From assembly GCA_031401135.1 (NCBI GenBank), contig JANNRF010000394.1, forward strand, positions 1-56,972: a stretch of DNA of 56,972 nt. The letters are read 5' to 3'. Source of the stretch: Deltaproteobacteria bacterium (lineage in GTDB: Bacteria > Myxococcota_A > UBA9160 > UBA6930). Below, piece by piece: positions 9,749-16,876 of this stretch; position 1 is the stretch's first letter, and each line of letters begins with the position of its first letter. Under the pieces are notes generated by a model. That model was given only the letters and a program-made list of their open reading frames with translations, was not told the DNA's origin and searched no databases. The position numbers and the translations under genes were made by a program.

Positions 9749-10147
9749 GGCGGCGCACTATAGGCAGCGCGCAGGCGGAACTGGGGGAGCGAAGCGCCGT
9801 GTCATCGCACGTTCACGCGCAACGACGAGGGCCAGAGCGCTGCCTTTACCGTGGGCGGGCAGACGAGCTGGTGAGCGTACGAAGAACTCTTCCCGATCCA
9901 ACTTACGTCAGGATTATTGGACCATTGAACTGAGAGCGACTCACCGGCCCGGCGCCATACACTCGATTGATGCAACAGGCGCCGTGGTGGCTTTTGCTCG
10001 CAATGCTCTGGCTGTTTGGCTCGGCAGCAATGCGGATCGTGCATCCGATGCGGTGCTAGCCGCCGCCCACCGCAGGCTCCGCCGCATGGCGACCGCGCTT
10101 CTCCAGCCTATGTTCCCGCCCCTCTCGGCGTCGGAGATCCCCCCAAC

Positions 10148-11059
10148 ATGAGCGCAGCATCGTTGCCCGAGCCCGCGCGCTCATCGTTCTCGCGCACGCT
10201 CTCGCTCTACCTCGCGCTCACCAAGCCGCGCATTCTCCCGCTCGTGATCTTCACCGCGCTGCCCGTCTTGTTGATGGCGCACGACGCGCCCGGCTTCGCG
10301 CGCAGCCTCGCCATCCTCGCGGGCATCTCGCTCGCGGCCGGCGCGGCGAACACGCTCAACATGTACGTGGAGCGCGATCGCGACGCGCTGATGGAGCGCA
10401 CGCGCACGCGCCCGCTGCCGAGTGGCGCGATCTCCGCGCGCGCGGCGCTCTTGTTCGGCCTCGCGCTCTCCGCGCTCGCGACGGCTGCGCTCTACGCCAT
10501 CGCGGGCGCACCGGCCGCGGGGCTCGGCGTCGCGAGCATTCTCTTTTACGTGTTCGTCTACACGATCTGGCTGAAGCCGCGCTCCGCGTACAACGCGGTC
10601 ATCGGCGGCGCGGCGGGCGCTGCGGCGCCGCTGATCGCGGACGCCGCGGTGAACGGCAGCGTCGGCTGGCCGGGCCTGCTCTTGTTCTCGATCGTGTTCT
10701 TCTGGCAACCGCCCCACGTCTGGGCGATCGCGCTCTACCGCAAGGGCGACTACGCCGCGGCCGGCATCCCGATGATGCCCGCGGTCATTGGGGATGAGCG
10801 CACGCGCCGCCGCATTCTCTGGTACACGCTCGGCCTCCTGCCCGTGACGATCGCGCCCGCGCTGCTCGGCCTGCTCGGCCCTATCTATCTAACTGCCGCG
10901 GCTCTCCTCGGCGCGTGGTTCGTGTGGTCCGGCGTGCAGTTGATTCGCGAGCGTACCGACGCCGCGGCGCAGCGCGTCTTCCGCGTCTCGCTCGGCTACC
11001 TCGCGCTGCTCTATCTCGCGATGCTGGTGGATCTGATCGCGCCGAAGCTGATCGCGTAG
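10148..11059 (+). CDS. cyoE: Protoheme IX farnesyltransferase (heme o synthase)
   Basis: LTKPR, NMYVERDRDALMERTRTRPLPSG, YTIWLKPR, FWQPPH and DYAAAGIPM motifs. Confidence 0.95.
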   Translation: MSAASLPEPARSSFSRTLSLYLALTKPRILPLVIFTALPVLLMAHDAPGFARSLAILAGISLAAGAANTLNMYVERDRDALMERTRTRPLPSGAISARAALLFGLALSALATAALYAIAGAPAAGLGVASILFYVFVYTIWLKPRSAYNAVIGGAAGAAAPLIADAAVNGSVGWPGLLLFSIVFFWQPPHVWAIALYRKGDYAAAGIPMMPAVIGDERTRRRILWYTLGLLPVTIAPALLGLLGPIYLTAAALLGAWFVWSGVQLIRERTDAAAQRVFRVSLGYLALLYLAMLVDLIAPKLIA

Positions 11060-11072
11060 CCGGGCCGCGGCC

Positions 11073-11507
11073 GTGGATCTTTCTGGGCTGCCCGCCGTCA
11101 ACGCCTCGCTGAACGCCGTCGCGACGGTGCTGCTGCTCTGGGGTCGCGCGCTCGTGAAGCGTGGGCGCATCGATGCGCATCGGCGCGTAATGCTCTCCGC
11201 GTTCGCGGTATCGAGCTTGTTCCTCGCGTTCTACGTCGCGCACAAAGTCTCACGCTCGTTCGAGAACACCACGTTCAACGCGCACGGCGCCGCGAAGGCC
11301 GCGTACCTCGCGCTGCTCGCGAGCCACGTCGTGCTCGCGGCGCTCGTGCCATTCCTCGCGCTCGCGCTGATCCGCTTCGGTCTGCGCGGCGAGATCGCGC
11401 GGCATCGCCGCCTCGCGCGCGTCGCATGGCCGATCTGGATGTACGTCTCGATCACCGGCGTGGTGATCTACGTGCTGCTCTATCAGGTGAATCCGCTGCT
11501 CATGTGA
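11073..11507 (+). CDS. DUF420 family membrane protein (oxidase-associated)
   Basis: LPAVNASLN, HRRVM, SHVVLA and HRRLARVAWPIWMYVSITGV; lies next to cyoE. Confidence 0.9.
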   Translation: MDLSGLPAVNASLNAVATVLLLWGRALVKRGRIDAHRRVMLSAFAVSSLFLAFYVAHKVSRSFENTTFNAHGAAKAAYLALLASHVVLAALVPFLALALIRFGLRGEIARHRRLARVAWPIWMYVSITGVVIYVLLYQVNPLLM

Positions 11508-11598
11508 AGTCGCGCCAAGCCGTGGCGCGATGCCTCGCGCGAAGAGCGGAGAACGCGCGCAACCCGCGGTTTCTCGCTGGTTTTGTGCCCTCCGTCCC

Positions 11599-11627
11599 TT
11601 GAAAATCGCATGCCCTCCGCTCACACT
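11599..11627 (+). promoter_or_regulatory. Candidate sigma70-type promoter of the oxidase operon
   Basis: TTGAAA-N17-CACACT; direct repeat TGCCCTCCG at 11586-11594 and 11611-11619. Confidence 0.35.
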
Positions 11628-11715
11628 GCGCGCCGCTTCTCGGCGGGCGCGCCGCTGTGATCCGATGAGTCCGCCGCGCGCGTTGGCCCACGAGAACATC
11701 CGCGCAAGGACCATC

Positions 11716-12435
11716 ATGAAGTCGATTCGATCGCTCGCCGCCTGCCTGCTGACTGCGGCGTTTCTCGGCGCCCCCACGCTCGCGGCTGCCGAGGACGCAG
11801 CAGCGGATCTCGCGCGAGGCAAGGAACTGTTCTCGCTGTGCGCGCACTGCCACGGCGACGCCGCCGAGGGCAAGCAGAACATCGGTGCGCCGGCGATCGC
11901 GGCCATGCCTGCGTGGTACGTGAAGGAGCAGCTGCGCAAGTACTCGGTGGGCCTGCGCGGCAGGCACTTCGACGACGCCGAGGGCCTGCGCATGCGGCCG
12001 ATGTCGCTATGGCTGATCGCGGCGCAGCACGCTGCGGACAACGCGAGCGGCACGACACCGGATCCCACCAAGCTCGACCCGAACATCGTGAACGTGGCGG
12101 CCTACGTGGCGAGCCTGCCCGCGACGAACCCCGCAAAGACGCTGAGCGGCGGCAATGCTGCCAACGGCGAAGCGAACTACCCCGGTTGCAGCTCGTGCCA
12201 CGGGCAATTCGGCGAGGGCACGGAGGCATTGACGGCGCCGCCGCTCGCCGGCCAGAGCGACTGGTACTTGCTCTCAGCGCTGCGCAAGTACAAAGCCGGG
12301 GTGCGCGGTTACGACGCTACCAACGACTCGTTGGCCTTCATGATGTCGGCAATGTCGGGCGCGCTGCTGCCCGACGAGCAGGCGATGCAAGACATGGTCG
12401 CGTACCTCGCGACGCTGCAGACCCCGAAGCAGTAG
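11716..12435 (+). CDS. Di-heme cytochrome c (c4-like)
   Basis: Signal peptide, CAHCH and CSSCH heme motifs, APAIA/APPLAGQ...Y repeats; AAGGA RBS before the ATG at 11716. Confidence 0.92.
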   Translation: MKSIRSLAACLLTAAFLGAPTLAAAEDAAADLARGKELFSLCAHCHGDAAEGKQNIGAPAIAAMPAWYVKEQLRKYSVGLRGRHFDDAEGLRMRPMSLWLIAAQHAADNASGTTPDPTKLDPNIVNVAAYVASLPATNPAKTLSGGNAANGEANYPGCSSCHGQFGEGTEALTAPPLAGQSDWYLLSALRKYKAGVRGYDATNDSLAFMMSAMSGALLPDEQAMQDMVAYLATLQTPKQ

Positions 12436-12564: not shown

Positions 12565-13263
12565 GTGGACATTTTCAACTTCACTCGCCTCCCGGCCATC
12601 TCGAGCTTCGCGACGTCGATCGACGACGTGATCGGCTGGGTCACGGTGCTGGTCGGCTTCTGGTTCATCGTCACCGAAGTCGTGCTGTTCTACTTCATCC
12701 TGAAGTACCGCAAGCAGAACTCGCCGAAGGCGGCGTACATCACGGGCGAGGAGCCTGAGCTGTTCCGCTGGATCAGCCGCCCCCACGCAGCCGTGCTGGT
12801 GTTCGATGTGTTCATCGTGGTGATCGGCGTCCGAGTGTGGCTGGATGTGAAACAGACACTTCCGCCGGAGCCGGTTCCGCACGTGCGCGTGATCGGACAG
12901 CAATGGGCGTGGAGCTTCGTGCATCCGGGCCTGGACGGGCAGCTCGATACCGCCGACGACATCAAGACGGTGGACGATCTCCACATCCAGACGAACCAGC
13001 AGTACATCTGGGAGCTCGAGGCGAGAGACGTGTTGCACAGCTTCTCGATCCCGGCGATGCGCCTGAAGCAAGACGCTGTGCCCGGCCGCGTGATCAAGGG
13101 CTGGATGGATGCGAACGCTGCGGGCGTCTACGAAATCCAGTGCGCGGAGATCTGCGGCATCGGCCACGGCCTGATGCCCGGCAAGCTGCACGTGGAAGAC
13201 GCGGCGCAGCATACGGCCTGGATGCAAGCGCACTCGCCCGTCGCCCGCATCGCCGCGAACTAG
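12565..13263 (+). CDS. coxB: Cytochrome c oxidase subunit II
   Basis: Two TM helices, QQWAWSF, DVLHSF and the CuA motif CAEICGIGHGLM. Confidence 0.95.
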   Translation: MDIFNFTRLPAISSFATSIDDVIGWVTVLVGFWFIVTEVVLFYFILKYRKQNSPKAAYITGEEPELFRWISRPHAAVLVFDVFIVVIGVRVWLDVKQTLPPEPVPHVRVIGQQWAWSFVHPGLDGQLDTADDIKTVDDLHIQTNQQYIWELEARDVLHSFSIPAMRLKQDAVPGRVIKGWMDANAAGVYEIQCAEICGIGHGLMPGKLHVEDAAQHTAWMQAHSPVARIAAN

Positions 13264-13279
13264 TTAGGTCGAGGACACC

Positions 13280-14977
13280 ATGGCCCACGCAGTCGATCAC
13301 GCTCCGGCTCACGACGACCACGGTCATCACGAGCAGAGCTTCTTCATGAAATATATGTGGTCGACCGACCACAAGATGATCGCGATGCAATACATGTTCA
13401 CGGGCATGCTGATGGCGATGCTCGGCGGCTTCTTCGCCTACGTGTTCCGCATGCAGAACGCGTTCCCCGGCATGGCCGTGCCGGGCTTCGGCCTGGTGAC
13501 TCCCGCCGACTACAACATGCTCGTCACCAACCACGGCACGATCATGATCTTCTGGGTCGCGATGCCGGTGCTGGTCGCCGCTTTCGGCAACTTCCTGATC
13601 CCGCTGATGGTCGGCTGCGACGACATGGTGTTCCCGAAGCTGAACCGCCTCTCGTATCAGATCTTCCTGCTGTCGGCGATCGTCCTGATTGCTGGCTTCT
13701 TCGTTCCCGGCGGTGGCTTCGGCGGCGCCTGGACGGCCTACCCGCCGCTCTCCGCCGTCGGCGTCTACAACCTCACGCCAATGGGCTCCTCGTTCTGGGT
13801 GCTGGCCGTCGCGCTCGAATTCGTGGCCTTCCTGTTAGGTGGTATCAACTTCATCACCACCTCGATGAATTCGCGCGCACCCGGCATGAAGCTCTACGAC
13901 ATCCCGATCGTGGTCTGGACGATCGTGATCGCGAGCGTGCTGTTCATGTGCTCGGTCGGCCCGCTGATCGCCGGCGCGATCATGCTGCTGTTCGACCAGA
14001 ACATCGGCACGGGCTTCTTCAACCCCGCGATGGGCGGCGACCCGGTGCTTTGGCAGCACCTGTTCTGGTTCTTCGGGCACCCCGAGGTGTACGTCGTGCT
14101 GCTGCCGACGCTCGGCATCGTCGCCGAAATCATCTGCGTGTTCTCGCGCAAGAAGCTGTTCGCGTACCAGACGGTGCTCTACACGATGTTCGGCACCGGC
14201 ATCCTGAGCTTCACGGTCTGGGCGCATCACCAGTTCATCTCGGGCATCGACCCGCGCATGGCGAACGTCTTTACGATCACCACGCTGCTCATCTCGGTGC
14301 CGATCGCGGAGATGTTGTTCGTCTACATCGCCACGCTCTACAAGGGCTCGATCACACTCTCGACGCCGATGCTATGGGCGCTCGGATTCATCGCGACGTT
14401 CCTGATCGGCGGCGTGACGGGCATCTACCTCGGCACCGCGGGCTCGGACATCTACTTCCACGACACCTACTTCGTGCTCGCCCACTTCCACTACACGTTC
14501 TTCCCGATCGCGATCATCGGCACCTACGCGGGCGTCACCTACTGGTACCCGAAGATGTTCGGCCGAATGCTCGACGAGACGCTCGGCAAGATTCACTTCT
14601 GGCTGACGTTCATCCCGTTCAACTGCATCTTCATCCCGCTCTTCTTCCTGGGCCTCTGGGGCGAGCATCGCCGCATCTACAGCTACGAGCTGTTCGACGA
14701 GCTCTGGAAGTATCAGGGCATCCGCCAGTTCGCGACCGTGGCGCTCGTGGTGATGCTGGCCGCGCAAGCGATCTTCATCTGGAACTTCTTCAAGAGCCTG
14801 TGGAGCGGCCCGATCGCGGGCCCGAACCCGTACAACGCCAACACGCTCGAGTGGCAGTGCCCGTCGCCGCCGCCCCACGGCAACTTCGCCGAGCTGCCGA
14901 CCGTCTACCGCCCGCCGTACGAGTACAGCCATCCGGACCGCAAGGAAGATTTCTGGCCGCAAAACTCGCCGGTCTAA
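13280..14977 (+). CDS. coxA: Cytochrome c oxidase subunit I, A1-type
   Basis: STDHK, NHGTIMIF, FGHPEVY, WAHH, HDTY..AHFHY and RR motifs; all six His ligands present. Confidence 0.97.
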   Translation: MAHAVDHAPAHDDHGHHEQSFFMKYMWSTDHKMIAMQYMFTGMLMAMLGGFFAYVFRMQNAFPGMAVPGFGLVTPADYNMLVTNHGTIMIFWVAMPVLVAAFGNFLIPLMVGCDDMVFPKLNRLSYQIFLLSAIVLIAGFFVPGGGFGGAWTAYPPLSAVGVYNLTPMGSSFWVLAVALEFVAFLLGGINFITTSMNSRAPGMKLYDIPIVVWTIVIASVLFMCSVGPLIAGAIMLLFDQNIGTGFFNPAMGGDPVLWQHLFWFFGHPEVYVVLLPTLGIVAEIICVFSRKKLFAYQTVLYTMFGTGILSFTVWAHHQFISGIDPRMANVFTITTLLISVPIAEMLFVYIATLYKGSITLSTPMLWALGFIATFLIGGVTGIYLGTAGSDIYFHDTYFVLAHFHYTFFPIAIIGTYAGVTYWYPKMFGRMLDETLGKIHFWLTFIPFNCIFIPLFFLGLWGEHRRIYSYELFDELWKYQGIRQFATVALVVMLAAQAIFIWNFFKSLWSGPIAGPNPYNANTLEWQCPSPPPHGNFAELPTVYRPPYEYSHPDRKEDFWPQNSPV

Positions 14978-15014: not shown

Positions 15015-15584
15015 ATGACACCGATTGCAACGACACGCAGCACCGCTGGGTTGCCGACCGGCACGCTCGGGGTGTGGTGGCTGCTGGGATCCGAGATCGT
15101 GATTTTCGGCGGGCTGCTGTGCTCGTACATCATGCACCGCCTCTCTCACGACTGGTGGTCGGCGGAAGCCGCGCACACGAACGTCTACATCGGCCTCACG
15201 AACACGTTCGTGCTGCTGACGTCGAGCTTGTTCGCGGTGCTCGCGCACGCCGCGGCGCAGCGCGGTGACGGCAAGCTCGCGGCGCGCCGGCTCTGGTACA
15301 CGATCGCCGGCGGCGGGATGTTCCTTTGCATCAAGGCGGCCGAGTGGACGATCGAGATCAGTAACGGCATGACGATCTCGTCGAGCAGCTTCTGGTCGTT
15401 CTACTACACGGCCGCGGGCATTCACGCCTCGCACGTGATCGCGGGCATGATCGCGATGGCGGTCGTCGCAATGGACGCCGCCAAGGGCAAGTTCCTGCAC
15501 CGCGTCGAGAACGCCGGGATCTACTGGCACTTCGTCGATCTCGTCTGGATTTTCCTCTTCCCGCTCCTCTACATCGCGAAGTAG
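15015..15584 (+). CDS. coxC: Heme-copper oxidase subunit III (short form, copy 1)
   Basis: GVWWLLGSEIVIFGGL, NTFVLLTSS, FYYTAAGIHASHV and YWHFVDLVW. Confidence 0.92.
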   Translation: MTPIATTRSTAGLPTGTLGVWWLLGSEIVIFGGLLCSYIMHRLSHDWWSAEAAHTNVYIGLTNTFVLLTSSLFAVLAHAAAQRGDGKLAARRLWYTIAGGGMFLCIKAAEWTIEISNGMTISSSSFWSFYYTAAGIHASHVIAGMIAMAVVAMDAAKGKFLHRVENAGIYWHFVDLVWIFLFPLLYIAK

Positions 15585-15591
15585 GTGACGC

Positions 15592-15975
15592 ATGTCCGAC
15601 CACGCACACGCCGCGCACGCTGACCACGGTGACGCCGCCGCGCACGAAAAGCACTACTGGAAGATCTGGCTCGTGTTGCTCGTGTTGCTCGGGATCAGCT
15701 TCGCGGGCCCGTTCCTCGAGATTCGCGTCATCACGATGGTTACGGCTTTCGGCATCGCGGTCGTGAAGGCCTGGCTCGTCGCCAAGCACTTCATGCACGT
15801 CACCGCGCAGCCCAAGTTCGTGATGTACCTGATGGGCACCTGCCTGGTGTTCATGCTGCTCTTCTTCGCGGGCACAGCGCCCGACGTGATGGAGCACGAG
15901 GGCGCGAACTGGACGAAGCCGAACCCGCACGGCGTGATTCCGGAGCGCGCGCTCCACCCCGAAGCGCATCACTAG
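15592..15975 (+). CDS. Cytochrome c oxidase subunit IV family protein
   Basis: His-rich N-terminus, YWKIWLVLLVLL, AVVKAWLVAKHFMH, 3 TM segments. Confidence 0.88.
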   Translation: MSDHAHAAHADHGDAAAHEKHYWKIWLVLLVLLGISFAGPFLEIRVITMVTAFGIAVVKAWLVAKHFMHVTAQPKFVMYLMGTCLVFMLLFFAGTAPDVMEHEGANWTKPNPHGVIPERALHPEAHH

Positions 15976-16061: not shown

Positions 16062-16655
16062 ATGCAGAGTCGCACTGGCGTTCCGCTGCGAGTGATTACG
16101 GATCCGCGGCCCGCGCCCGCAGTGCCGAGCGCGGTGCTTGGCACGTCTCTGTTCGTGTTCAGCGAGGCGATGCTGTTCGCGGGCCTGATCAGCGCGTTCT
16201 CGATCACGCGCGCGAGTTCGCTGCTCGGCTGGCCCCCGCCCGGGCAGCCGCGCCTGCCCACCGAGGCGACCGCGCTCAACACGCTCGCACTACTCGCCTC
16301 GGGCGTCGTGCTCTATCTCGCGGGCCGCGCCCACGCGCGCGAGCGGCGCACCGCAGCCACGCCGATGCTCGTCGCGCTCGGCCTCGCCGCGTTCTTCGTG
16401 TGCTTCCAGGGCTACGAGTGGGTGCAGCTGCTCGGCGAGGGGCTCACGCTCACCTCGAGCCAGCACGGCAGCTTCTTCTACCTAATCATCGGCATCCACG
16501 CGCTGCACTGCATCGCCGCGATCGCCGCGCTCGCCTGGGTCTACCGCCGCCTCACGCGCGGCATGCTCGCCGCGAGCACCTTCCAGGCCGTGCGCGTGTT
16601 CTGGTACTTCGTGGTCGGCCTCTGGCCGCTGCTCTACTGGCGGGTGTACTGGTAG
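16062..16655 (+). CDS. Heme-copper oxidase subunit III (short form, copy 2)
   Basis: LGTSLFVFSEAMLFAGL, NTLALLAS, QGYEW, FFYLIIGIHALH and FWYFVVGLW. Confidence 0.88.
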   Translation: MQSRTGVPLRVITDPRPAPAVPSAVLGTSLFVFSEAMLFAGLISAFSITRASSLLGWPPPGQPRLPTEATALNTLALLASGVVLYLAGRAHARERRTAATPMLVALGLAAFFVCFQGYEWVQLLGEGLTLTSSQHGSFFYLIIGIHALHCIAAIAALAWVYRRLTRGMLAASTFQAVRVFWYFVVGLWPLLYWRVYW

Positions 16656-16657
16656 CC

Positions 16658-16876
16658 ATGAAGAGCTTCACCACCGCCGTCGCGTTCGCACTCGCCACGC
16701 TGCCCGCGCAGCAAGCCGTCGCCTGCGCCGTCTGTTTCTCGGGCCGCGACGAGAGCCGCGTCATGTACCTGCTGACGACGATCTTCATGACGCTGATCCC
16801 GATCGCCGTGTTAGGCGGCGGGATCTACTGGGTCGTGAAGAAGGCCACGGCGACCGACAGCGCGCCGCCGCGCTGA
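16658..16876 (+). CDS. Small exported CxxC membrane peptide (72 aa)
   Basis: Signal peptide ending AVA, then CAVCF, one TM helix and a KK stop-transfer; starts 2 nt after the previous stop. Confidence 0.75.
   Translation: MKSFTTAVAFALATLPAQQAVACAVCFSGRDESRVMYLLTTIFMTLIPIAVLGGGIYWVVKKATATDSAPPR

Follow-up and report, generated by a model that had tools for sequence, protein, structure and literature searches.

Textbook haem-copper oxidases (HCOs) of the A family need two proton-input pathways, D and K, and in model enzymes exchange of the K-pathway Lys for Met nearly abolishes activity. How protons might be delivered in an enzyme that carries this Met naturally is the question raised by coxI, a gene at positions 13280–14977 (+ strand) of a 56,972-nt stretch of DNA (contig JANNRF010000394.1 of assembly GCA_031401135.1; the whole stretch is called the window here) from a bacterium of the lineage Myxococcota_A. 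The gene encodes a 565-residue subunit I of A1 type (HPEVY motif; Pfam COX1, PF00115, 428 bits). We found that the canonical K-pathway side chains, including the entry Glu contributed by subunit II, are all replaced by hydrophobic residues in this enzyme, and that the loss goes together with new polar residues, in both subunit I and subunit II, that are conserved and occur jointly.

Positions 14282–14341 (+ strand) translate to TLLISVPIAEMLFVYIATLY, which corresponds to helix VIII of CoxI (translation of the minus strand gave nothing meaningful), and HMMER alignment to Paracoccus denitrificans (Pd) subunit I (1ar1_A; E 5.8e-123) was gap-free across helices VI–VIII. Ile342, Glu344 (14309–14311), Met345 (14312–14314) and Val348 fall at Pd T351, I353, K354 and S357 respectively, bearing out a preliminary description of the locus that had noted Thr to Ile, Lys to Met and Ser to Val replacements in this helix, with a Glu one residue before the Lys position. 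The same description had an Ala at the position of Rhodobacter sphaeroides (Rs) S299, which we could place as Ala282, equivalent to Pd S291, by counting 11 residues beyond Tyr271. With Rs numbering, which we take to be Pd plus 8 (consistent with the matches to 1m56 and 3om3), the A-family K pathway formed by K362, T359, S299 and S365, and by E101 of subunit II, is absent, the respective residues being M345, I342, A282, V348 and, in subunit II, L66. Alignment of subunit II to its R. sphaeroides counterpart put Leu66 (12760–12762) at the entry-Glu position three residues before a Trp (W-3), with Glu65 one residue earlier, and located His74 (W+5, 12784–12786) and Asp81 (W+12, 12805–12807) in transmembrane helix 2 (TM2), in agreement with the earlier reading that the entry-Glu spacing is missing there and that a His and an Asp are present.

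We then compared these positions in an alignment of 259 sequences comprising the window protein, 120 close matches, library representatives of 480–700 residues and high-scoring segment pairs from genome loci, the last aligned only if longer than 480 residues and stop-free (rows outside the length limits were dropped). These were grouped into 138 rows of a clade with Glu followed by Met or Leu, 92 Lys-bearing rows and 29 other rows. Lys is missing in 138/138 clade rows, the T359 equivalent is Ile, Leu or Val in all 138, and the S299 equivalent is Ala in 131. Relative to the Lys-bearing group, the polar losses are Ser to Phe at 184, Thr to Ala at 218, Ser to Ala at 282, Ser/Thr to Ile at 342, Lys to Met/Leu at 345, Asn/Ser to Val at 348 and His to Phe at 455.

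Among the gains, Glu344 is present in 138/138 clade rows, and this position is Ile or Val in 92/92 Lys-bearing rows; in helix IV, Glu180 (13817–13819) is likewise found in 138/138 clade rows, whereas no Lys-bearing row (0/92) has it, counting the four most frequent residues listed. Helix VII (14171–14233, + strand) gains Thr298 (131/138 clade rows), Thr302 (138/138), Thr306 (138/138; Ile in 91/92 Lys-bearing rows) and Ser310 (137/138), followed by the CuB ligands His316 and His317 and by Gln318, and helix VIII, which also contains Thr335, has Ser339 in 138/138 clade rows. In an AlphaFold2 (AF2) model of subunit I, DSSP assigned Glu180, positions 298–310 and Glu344 all to helices. An independent set of 80 loci selected by the helix VIII motif gave similar counts for Thr306 (78/80), Thr302 (77/80), Ser310 (79/80) and Glu180 (76 of the 77 covered). 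Subunit II TM2 was covered in 64 of these loci, and has His at W+5 in 63 and Asp at W+12 in 63, with the entry Glu at W-3 in just 18; E-x-x-W occurs in 43 of 50 Lys-bearing loci.

The metal ligands His85, His267, His316, His317, His402 and His404 align to those of haem a, haem a3 and CuB in the P. denitrificans enzyme. H85, H267, H316, H402, H404, E269, Y271, D115, N104, N122, N190, R464 and R465 are invariant in the 138 clade rows, as are the Mg-site His and Asp, and H317 is present in 137. Helix VI (14078–14125, + strand) thus carries, besides Ala282 and the CuB ligand His267, the A1 hallmark Glu of HPEVY (Glu269) and Tyr271, the latter four residues past the CuB His at the cross-link position and present in 138/138 rows. 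The lower D pathway is also retained (D115, N104, N122, S125 and N190). The preliminary description of the D channel and the Tyr as intact therefore stands for this lower part, for E269 and for Y271, but not for the upper D-pathway serines: Pd S189/S192/S193 (Rs S197/S200/S201) read Glu180, Ala183 and Phe184 (helix IV segment 13817–13831, + strand; Phe184 at 13829–13831), with Phe184 in place of Ser in 138/138 clade rows.

These changes are not private to the genome in which they were noticed. In a search of a 5.8-billion-protein collection, the best 120 matches were 76–91% identical to the window protein and all 120 carry P-[IL]-A-E-[ML]; a 50%-clustered library held a single full-length cluster at 73% identity, its next full-length relatives being at 46% or below. 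A degenerate DNA pattern for the motif matched species-representative genomes, at least 120 in number and labelled as members of about ten phyla, and all 80 loci examined of the 120 listed are CoxI homologues. Among the matches listed, the record labels are 45 Myxococcota, 10 Gemmatimonadota, 8 Bdellovibrionota, 8 Spirochaetota, 7 Eisenbacteria, 6 Verrucomicrobiota and 6 Acidobacteria; since some metagenome-assembled genome records carry implausible labels (L016, L143, L120 and L335, with names such as Klebsiella pneumoniae, Enterobacteriaceae and Bifidobacteriaceae), such phylum tallies are approximate. The best 80 genome loci comprised 19 with the Glu-Met/Leu motif (Myxococcota, Gemmatimonadota, Bdellovibrionota, Eisenbacteria and others), 7 relatives at 52–69% identity without Lys and Glu, 4 Lys-less from other clades and 50 Lys-bearing. 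The clade is large, mostly uncultured and horizontally spread, with identities of 70–91% across phyla and a syntenic operon, and it includes a cultured carrier, Oligoflexus tunisiensis Shr3, whose enzyme is 71% identical and has every feature and the same cluster. Some of the close matches are named 'cytochrome c oxidase subunit I' in public records, but several records (P0037, P0083, P0098 and P0117) misname these A-family proteins as 'cbb3-type cytochrome c oxidase subunit I'.

In a tree of 84 rows (IQ-TREE LG+G4, quick search; rows hand-picked and enriched for Lys-less sequences), the Glu344 group and a set of Lys-less sisters form one clade (SH-aLRT 100), within which the Glu344 group joins L017 (SH-aLRT 100). 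A second Lys-less clade, from Verrucomicrobiota, Planctomycetota and Acidobacteriota, is sister to the window clade with SH-aLRT of just 93, and the two together are placed within Lys-bearing enzymes from Gemmatimonadota, Binatia, Acidobacteriota and Bacteroidota; the tree requires the Lys state to have changed at least eight times. Lone Lys-less sequences inside Lys-bearing clades (L030 and L071–L073) represent recent independent losses, L030 adjoining L031 at SH-aLRT 97 and L071/L072 falling within Acidobacteriota.

A need for function is indicated by identity that holds at 70–76% across phyla with a syntenic cluster, and many hosts appear to depend on the clade enzyme. Of 31 genomes sharing genus, family or order with the window's, 25 contain a match of at least 73% identity, and in 23 of these 25 we detected no other A-family match (E at most 1e-20); one of the two exceptions has 9 in-frame TGA codons. 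In a closed Longimicrobiales chromosome, the clade enzyme is the sole PF00115 match and cytochrome bd was not found. Nor was cytochrome bd found in the window's own genome (95% complete), which has two PF00115 matches. The second of these (L002:871-3156, contig C9) has ba3-type chains as its nearest solved relatives (E 1e-42), reads G-H-S-S-Q-Q at the His...Tyr motif, with no Tyr at His+4, and has none six residues ahead of the helix VII His pair. A missing Tyr is used as a mark of nitric oxide (NO) reductases in the available text of PMC11214002, and this second HCO is probably, judging by these residues, a B-family-derived NO reductase; assignment as a quinol-dependent NO reductase (qNOR) was rejected, its best solved relatives being ba3-type chains and the Tyr missing. 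Elsewhere, G003 (Gemmatimonadaceae; L091, L094–L098) has a second, A2-like oxidase gene with Y-S-H-P-A-V-Y and Lys present, which seems frame-split; one fragment has 2 in-frame TGA codons, and the gene may be a pseudogene or reflect long-read errors. Contigs from four sequencing runs, at least 90% alike, cover parts of coxII and coxI (X15–X17 recorded as RNA, X8 guessed to be RNA), and those of X8 and X15 span the helix VIII bin, where the Glu344 and Met345 codons have no difference listed; bins left uncovered carry no meaning. Most run contigs are 90–95% alike and hence come from relatives, and the RNA-library contigs are a hint at most of transcription.

What route could protons take in such an enzyme? 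We regard it as an even bet, from the placement of the new residues, that the second proton-input path has been relocated and not abandoned. Protons for reduction of haem a3-CuB would come in where subunits I and II meet, travel by way of the subunit II TM2 residues His74 and Asp81 and then Glu344 of helix VIII, and climb a hydroxyl ladder on helix VII (Thr298, Thr302, Thr306 and Ser310) up to Tyr271. The D pathway would stay in use for pumped and oxidative-phase protons, its upper part remodelled by Glu180 beside Glu269 and Phe184 in place of Ser. The new residues would thus line one continuous proton path in an enzyme that presumably pumps. Glu344 lies at i-4 from the S365 equivalent and so on the same helix face, one turn up, which would put it at roughly the depth of the lost Lys. 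Positions 298, 302, 306 and 310 follow one another in i+4 steps on successive turns of helix VII, ending six residues before the first CuB His. In C-family oxidases the cross-linked Tyr sits six residues before the first CuB His, and the end of the ladder is accordingly expected on helix VII next to Tyr271, with the threonines possibly placing new hydroxyls in the channel. In subunit II, Asp81 follows His74 at a spacing of i to i+7; measured from the entry-Glu position, the two would sit two and four turns further up, on a similar face and no more than about 80 degrees away from the canonical Glu.

Several observations weigh against relocation. The side-chain directions just described rest on helical periodicity and on homology to the C family. 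Thr298 is weaker in the motif-selected set (56/80). The sisters (n = 8: L017, from an isolate-labelled Puniceicoccaceae genome, L018, L020, L021, L023, L026, L027 and L151) have no Lys, no Glu344 and no Thr306 (P0124, with Thr306, being an exception), and lack Thr298 and Thr302 as such, with Ser at 302 in 3/8. They look conserved and have the same gene cluster, so that an enzyme that has lost the Lys can seemingly do without the proposed path. Four sister sequences have Thr at the Lys position, which is the ba3 solution. The sisters keep Glu180 (E/D in 8/8) and the subunit II Asp, the subunit II His occurring only in L017, and Glu180 and Asp81 are the sole gains common to the entire Lys-less clade; they fit a solution centred on the D pathway at least as well as they fit relocation. 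Near the D entrance, moreover, Asp114, Arg123 and Gln127 are gained in 138/138 clade rows each, which could mean more D traffic. Finally, five traits were tested for association with Lys loss under phylogenetic control (T/S306, E/D180, non-Ser282, an acidic residue at 343–345 and non-S/T342). Well-supported branches supplied only 4 independent pairs, giving a median p of 0.5 for non-S/T342 and of 1 for each of the other four traits. With 4 pairs this test is without power, so the co-occurrence counts are descriptive only, and the co-occurrence is essentially one evolutionary event.

The main rival, which we hold to be less likely than relocation, is that the D pathway takes up every one of the eight protons used per O2, by way of Asp115 and the Asn cluster. 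Glu180 beside Glu269 would then be a second carboxylate letting this pathway serve the reductive phase too, with Glu344, the helix VII hydroxyls and the subunit II His being structural or tuning subunit packing. The presence of Glu180 (E/D) and Asp81 in every Lys-less clade member, including sisters without Glu344 or ladder, points this way, as do the additions at the D entrance and the invariant Phe184, a sign that the upper D pathway was rebuilt. The same solution has been proposed for enzymes of iron oxidisers, according to the accessible portion of a preprint (bioRxiv 10.1101/2020.03.01.968255), and the Verrucomicrobiota type, 56 of whose 79 rows are without Lys, shows no obvious replacement for it. 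However, an invariant buried Glu, four new hydroxyls on the facing helix and a subunit II His amount to much polarity for no proton function. The Verrucomicrobiota-type clade, besides, retains both D-pathway serines and has no Glu180, so that Glu180 is not a general requirement of Lys loss. We give somewhat less than even chances to a history of two stages: the lineage would first have lost the Lys pathway while gaining Glu180 at the end of the D pathway, and within it the second input would then have been re-invented from a relay of Glu344 and subunit II His74 and Asp81 where the two subunits meet, together with the helix VII ladder up to the cross-linked Tyr.

It is improbable, in our judgement, that the changes instead mark altered energetics or an altered substrate, in an enzyme that is non-pumping or of low stoichiometry, cation-coupled, or also NO-reducing, with changes near the proton-loading region outweighing those in the K region. 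Clade-specific changes do occur on the P side near Arg464/Arg465: Gln318, beside the CuB His pair (138/138 clade rows; Met in 89/92 Lys-bearing rows), His463, directly before the Arg pair (138/138; Pro in 52/92 Lys-bearing rows), Phe455 (His in 75/92) and Thr420 (Tyr in 65/92). A-family enzymes also show some NO reduction, as stated in the part of PMC11214002 available. Nonetheless, the O2-reducing site is fully canonical, Tyr271 and Glu269 included, the enzyme is the sole recognised O2 reductase in some genomes, and the sequence indicates no cation site. A decaying or misassembled gene, its K-region lesions neutral because another oxidase does the work, is scarcely credible: some carriers do own other oxidases (G001 also carries a Lys-bearing A1 enzyme, and O. 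tunisiensis has four further HCO matches and a bd), but the data already contradict decay, with an intact open reading frame (ORF), the motif kept in all 120 closest homologues, 70–91% identity and synteny across phyla, and no second A-family enzyme in 23 of the 25 relatives. The preliminary suggestion of concerted rewiring in place of decay is therefore upheld by fixation of the changes in a multi-phylum clade, by the co-occurring new polar residues and by the status of the enzyme as sole A-family oxidase in most relatives. One of the additional O. tunisiensis enzymes (L379), A-family-like with HPDVY in helix VI, has Gln at the Lys position, so both A-type oxidases of this strain are without Lys.

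Subunit I is encoded by the fifth gene of a nine-gene cluster, all on the + strand, as identified with Pfam. The cluster opens with a ctaB-like haem O synthase gene (10016–11059; UbiA, E 2e-58; its true start may lie downstream of the ORF start), followed by genes for a DUF420 membrane protein (11073–11507; DUF420, E 1.7e-37; syntenic in several loci) and a dihaem c-type cytochrome (11530–12435; Cytochrom_C in two stretches, two CxxCH motifs and a likely signal peptide from about 11716). The cytochrome gene is kept upstream of coxII across PIAEM-type loci, and its product is the probable electron donor. Next come subunit II (12565–13263; COX2, PF00116), whose CuA segment C-x-E-x-C-G-x-x-H-x-x-M aligns to R. 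sphaeroides subunit II, and coxI. Downstream lie genes for a short subunit III of 189 residues (15015–15584; COX3; syntenic), a prokaryotic subunit IV (15592–15975; COX4_pro; syntenic), a second COX3-like paralogue (16062–16655; COX3, E 5.5e-21; syntenic in the clade and its sisters) and a small membrane protein of 72 residues with a Cys-x-x-Cys motif (16658–16876), which had no Pfam match above cut-off and tblastn matches in 15 of the loci listed. The placement of the last two genes after coxIV is syntenic within the clade across phyla.

The closest solved structures to subunit I are actinobacterial aa3 oxidases (E 4e-126), then those of P. denitrificans and R. sphaeroides (E 1e-123 to 1e-122), with PDB matches spanning E 1e-126 to 1e-109. 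The AF2 model (mean pLDDT 91.9, built on 66 sequences) superposed on solved A-family subunit I chains with TM scores of 0.86–0.89 and rmsd of about 2 Å (Foldseek). For the NCBIfam CtaD/CoxA equivalog TIGR02891, the protein scored 575.3 bits, under the 670.75 cut-off. Besides the ctaB gene adjacent to the cox genes, COX15/CtaA was found in the window's genome, and CtaA was present in 5/5 genomes searched; these haem O and haem A synthase genes suggest an aa3 haem type. The homology evidence as a whole points to subunit I of an apparently working CuA-dependent cytochrome c:O2 oxidoreductase of the A family, A1 subtype.

Compared with canonical A1 aa3 oxidases (P. denitrificans 1ar1/1qle and R. 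sphaeroides 1m56/2gsm), to which it is 38–39% identical, the window enzyme has the same 12-helix fold (TM 0.86–0.93, rmsd about 2 Å), haem and CuB ligands, HPEVY Glu and Tyr, D-pathway Asp and Asn residues and Arg pair, and its cluster likewise provides a CuA subunit II and subunits III and IV. The canonical enzymes, in contrast, keep the K side chains, the entry Glu and the upper D-pathway Ser residues, which are replaced in the window enzyme, where Glu180, Glu344, the helix VII Thr ladder and subunit II His74/Asp81 are new. The R. sphaeroides K362M mutant (PDB 3om3) likewise has Met at the pathway-Lys position; the natural enzyme differs from it in that many other positions have changed along with the Lys, and its hosts appear to use it as their working oxidase. 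B and C families are without a D pathway, which the window enzyme keeps, and use a single K-analogue pathway made from other residues, a precedent for rebuilding the input route beneath haem a3 from Thr, Ser, Tyr or Glu.

Loss of the Lys is not confined to this clade. The available text of the preprint cited above (Degli Esposti et al.) describes K-less family-A cytochrome c oxidases (COX) in acidophilic Fe(II) oxidisers and relatives, with K lost and D kept; these share with the window enzyme a hydrophobic residue for the Lys, a substituted COX2 entry Glu and an essentially retained D pathway. They are there called A2 type, unlike the window enzyme, whose HPEVY motif is that of A1, and that text makes no mention of Glu180, Glu344, the Thr ladder or the subunit II His/Asp. 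The same text mentions Gemmatimonadetes clusters with a c4-like dihaem cytochrome and duplicated COX3, which match the layout of the window cluster. Cupredoxins other than COX2 were found neither in the nine cluster ORFs (Pfam) nor upstream of three Gemmatimonadota loci, where Pfam identified bactofilin, NIF3, CarboxypepD_reg, multihaem cytochromes c, an ABC ATPase and DUF192; assignment to the rus-operon type of Fe(II) oxidisers, which has an A2-type subunit I and genes for rusticyanin and an outer-membrane cytochrome in its cluster, was rejected on the A1 motif and the absence of a rusticyanin context. Repeated K-channel loss is also reported for archaeal enzymes in the portion of PMC8239418 available. 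The haloarchaeal Lys-less type keeps the A1 motif and active site and has an acidic residue, Asp at 343, beside the lost Lys. The Verrucomicrobiota/Planctomycetota/Acidobacteriota type likewise retains the A1 motif and the active site, with Ala as the S299 equivalent in most rows; unlike the window clade, this type has both D-pathway serines, Ser at the T359 position and no Glu180, Glu344 or Thr306. Its members (L099–L153 and L178) include Marinimicrobia and Rubritalea marina DSM 17716, with Ile or Leu at the Lys position. The O. tunisiensis genome paper, in its available text, lists 'aa3-type' oxidases only (PMC5154148). We found no paper describing the present variant as conventional, and none on the package of Glu180, Glu344, Thr ladder and subunit II His/Asp in a literature search that left most subscription journals outside its reach. 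Given that K-less A-family oxidases have been described and that Lys loss is common in further clades, the variant is less surprising than it first appears: what is new here is K loss with a conserved replacement set, K-less A-family oxidases as such having already been published.

For annotation, the clade falls below the CtaD equivalog cut-off and its members are mislabelled as 'cbb3-type'. For the biology of the family, the Met of a near-inactive mutant is fixed in an enzyme that seems to serve as the main oxidase, and often as the sole one, in many Myxococcota, Gemmatimonadota, Bdellovibrionota and other bacteria of sediments and soils. The route by which protons are delivered in these enzymes would show either that a single pathway is enough for an A-type scaffold or how other components can be assembled into a new one, with the sister lineages as natural controls and O. 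tunisiensis Shr3 as a cultured carrier. If the second input was indeed lost and then re-invented, it would be a fourth K-analogue channel architecture in the superfamily, and the sisters without this path and the clade with it would form a natural series bearing on what the second pathway is for.

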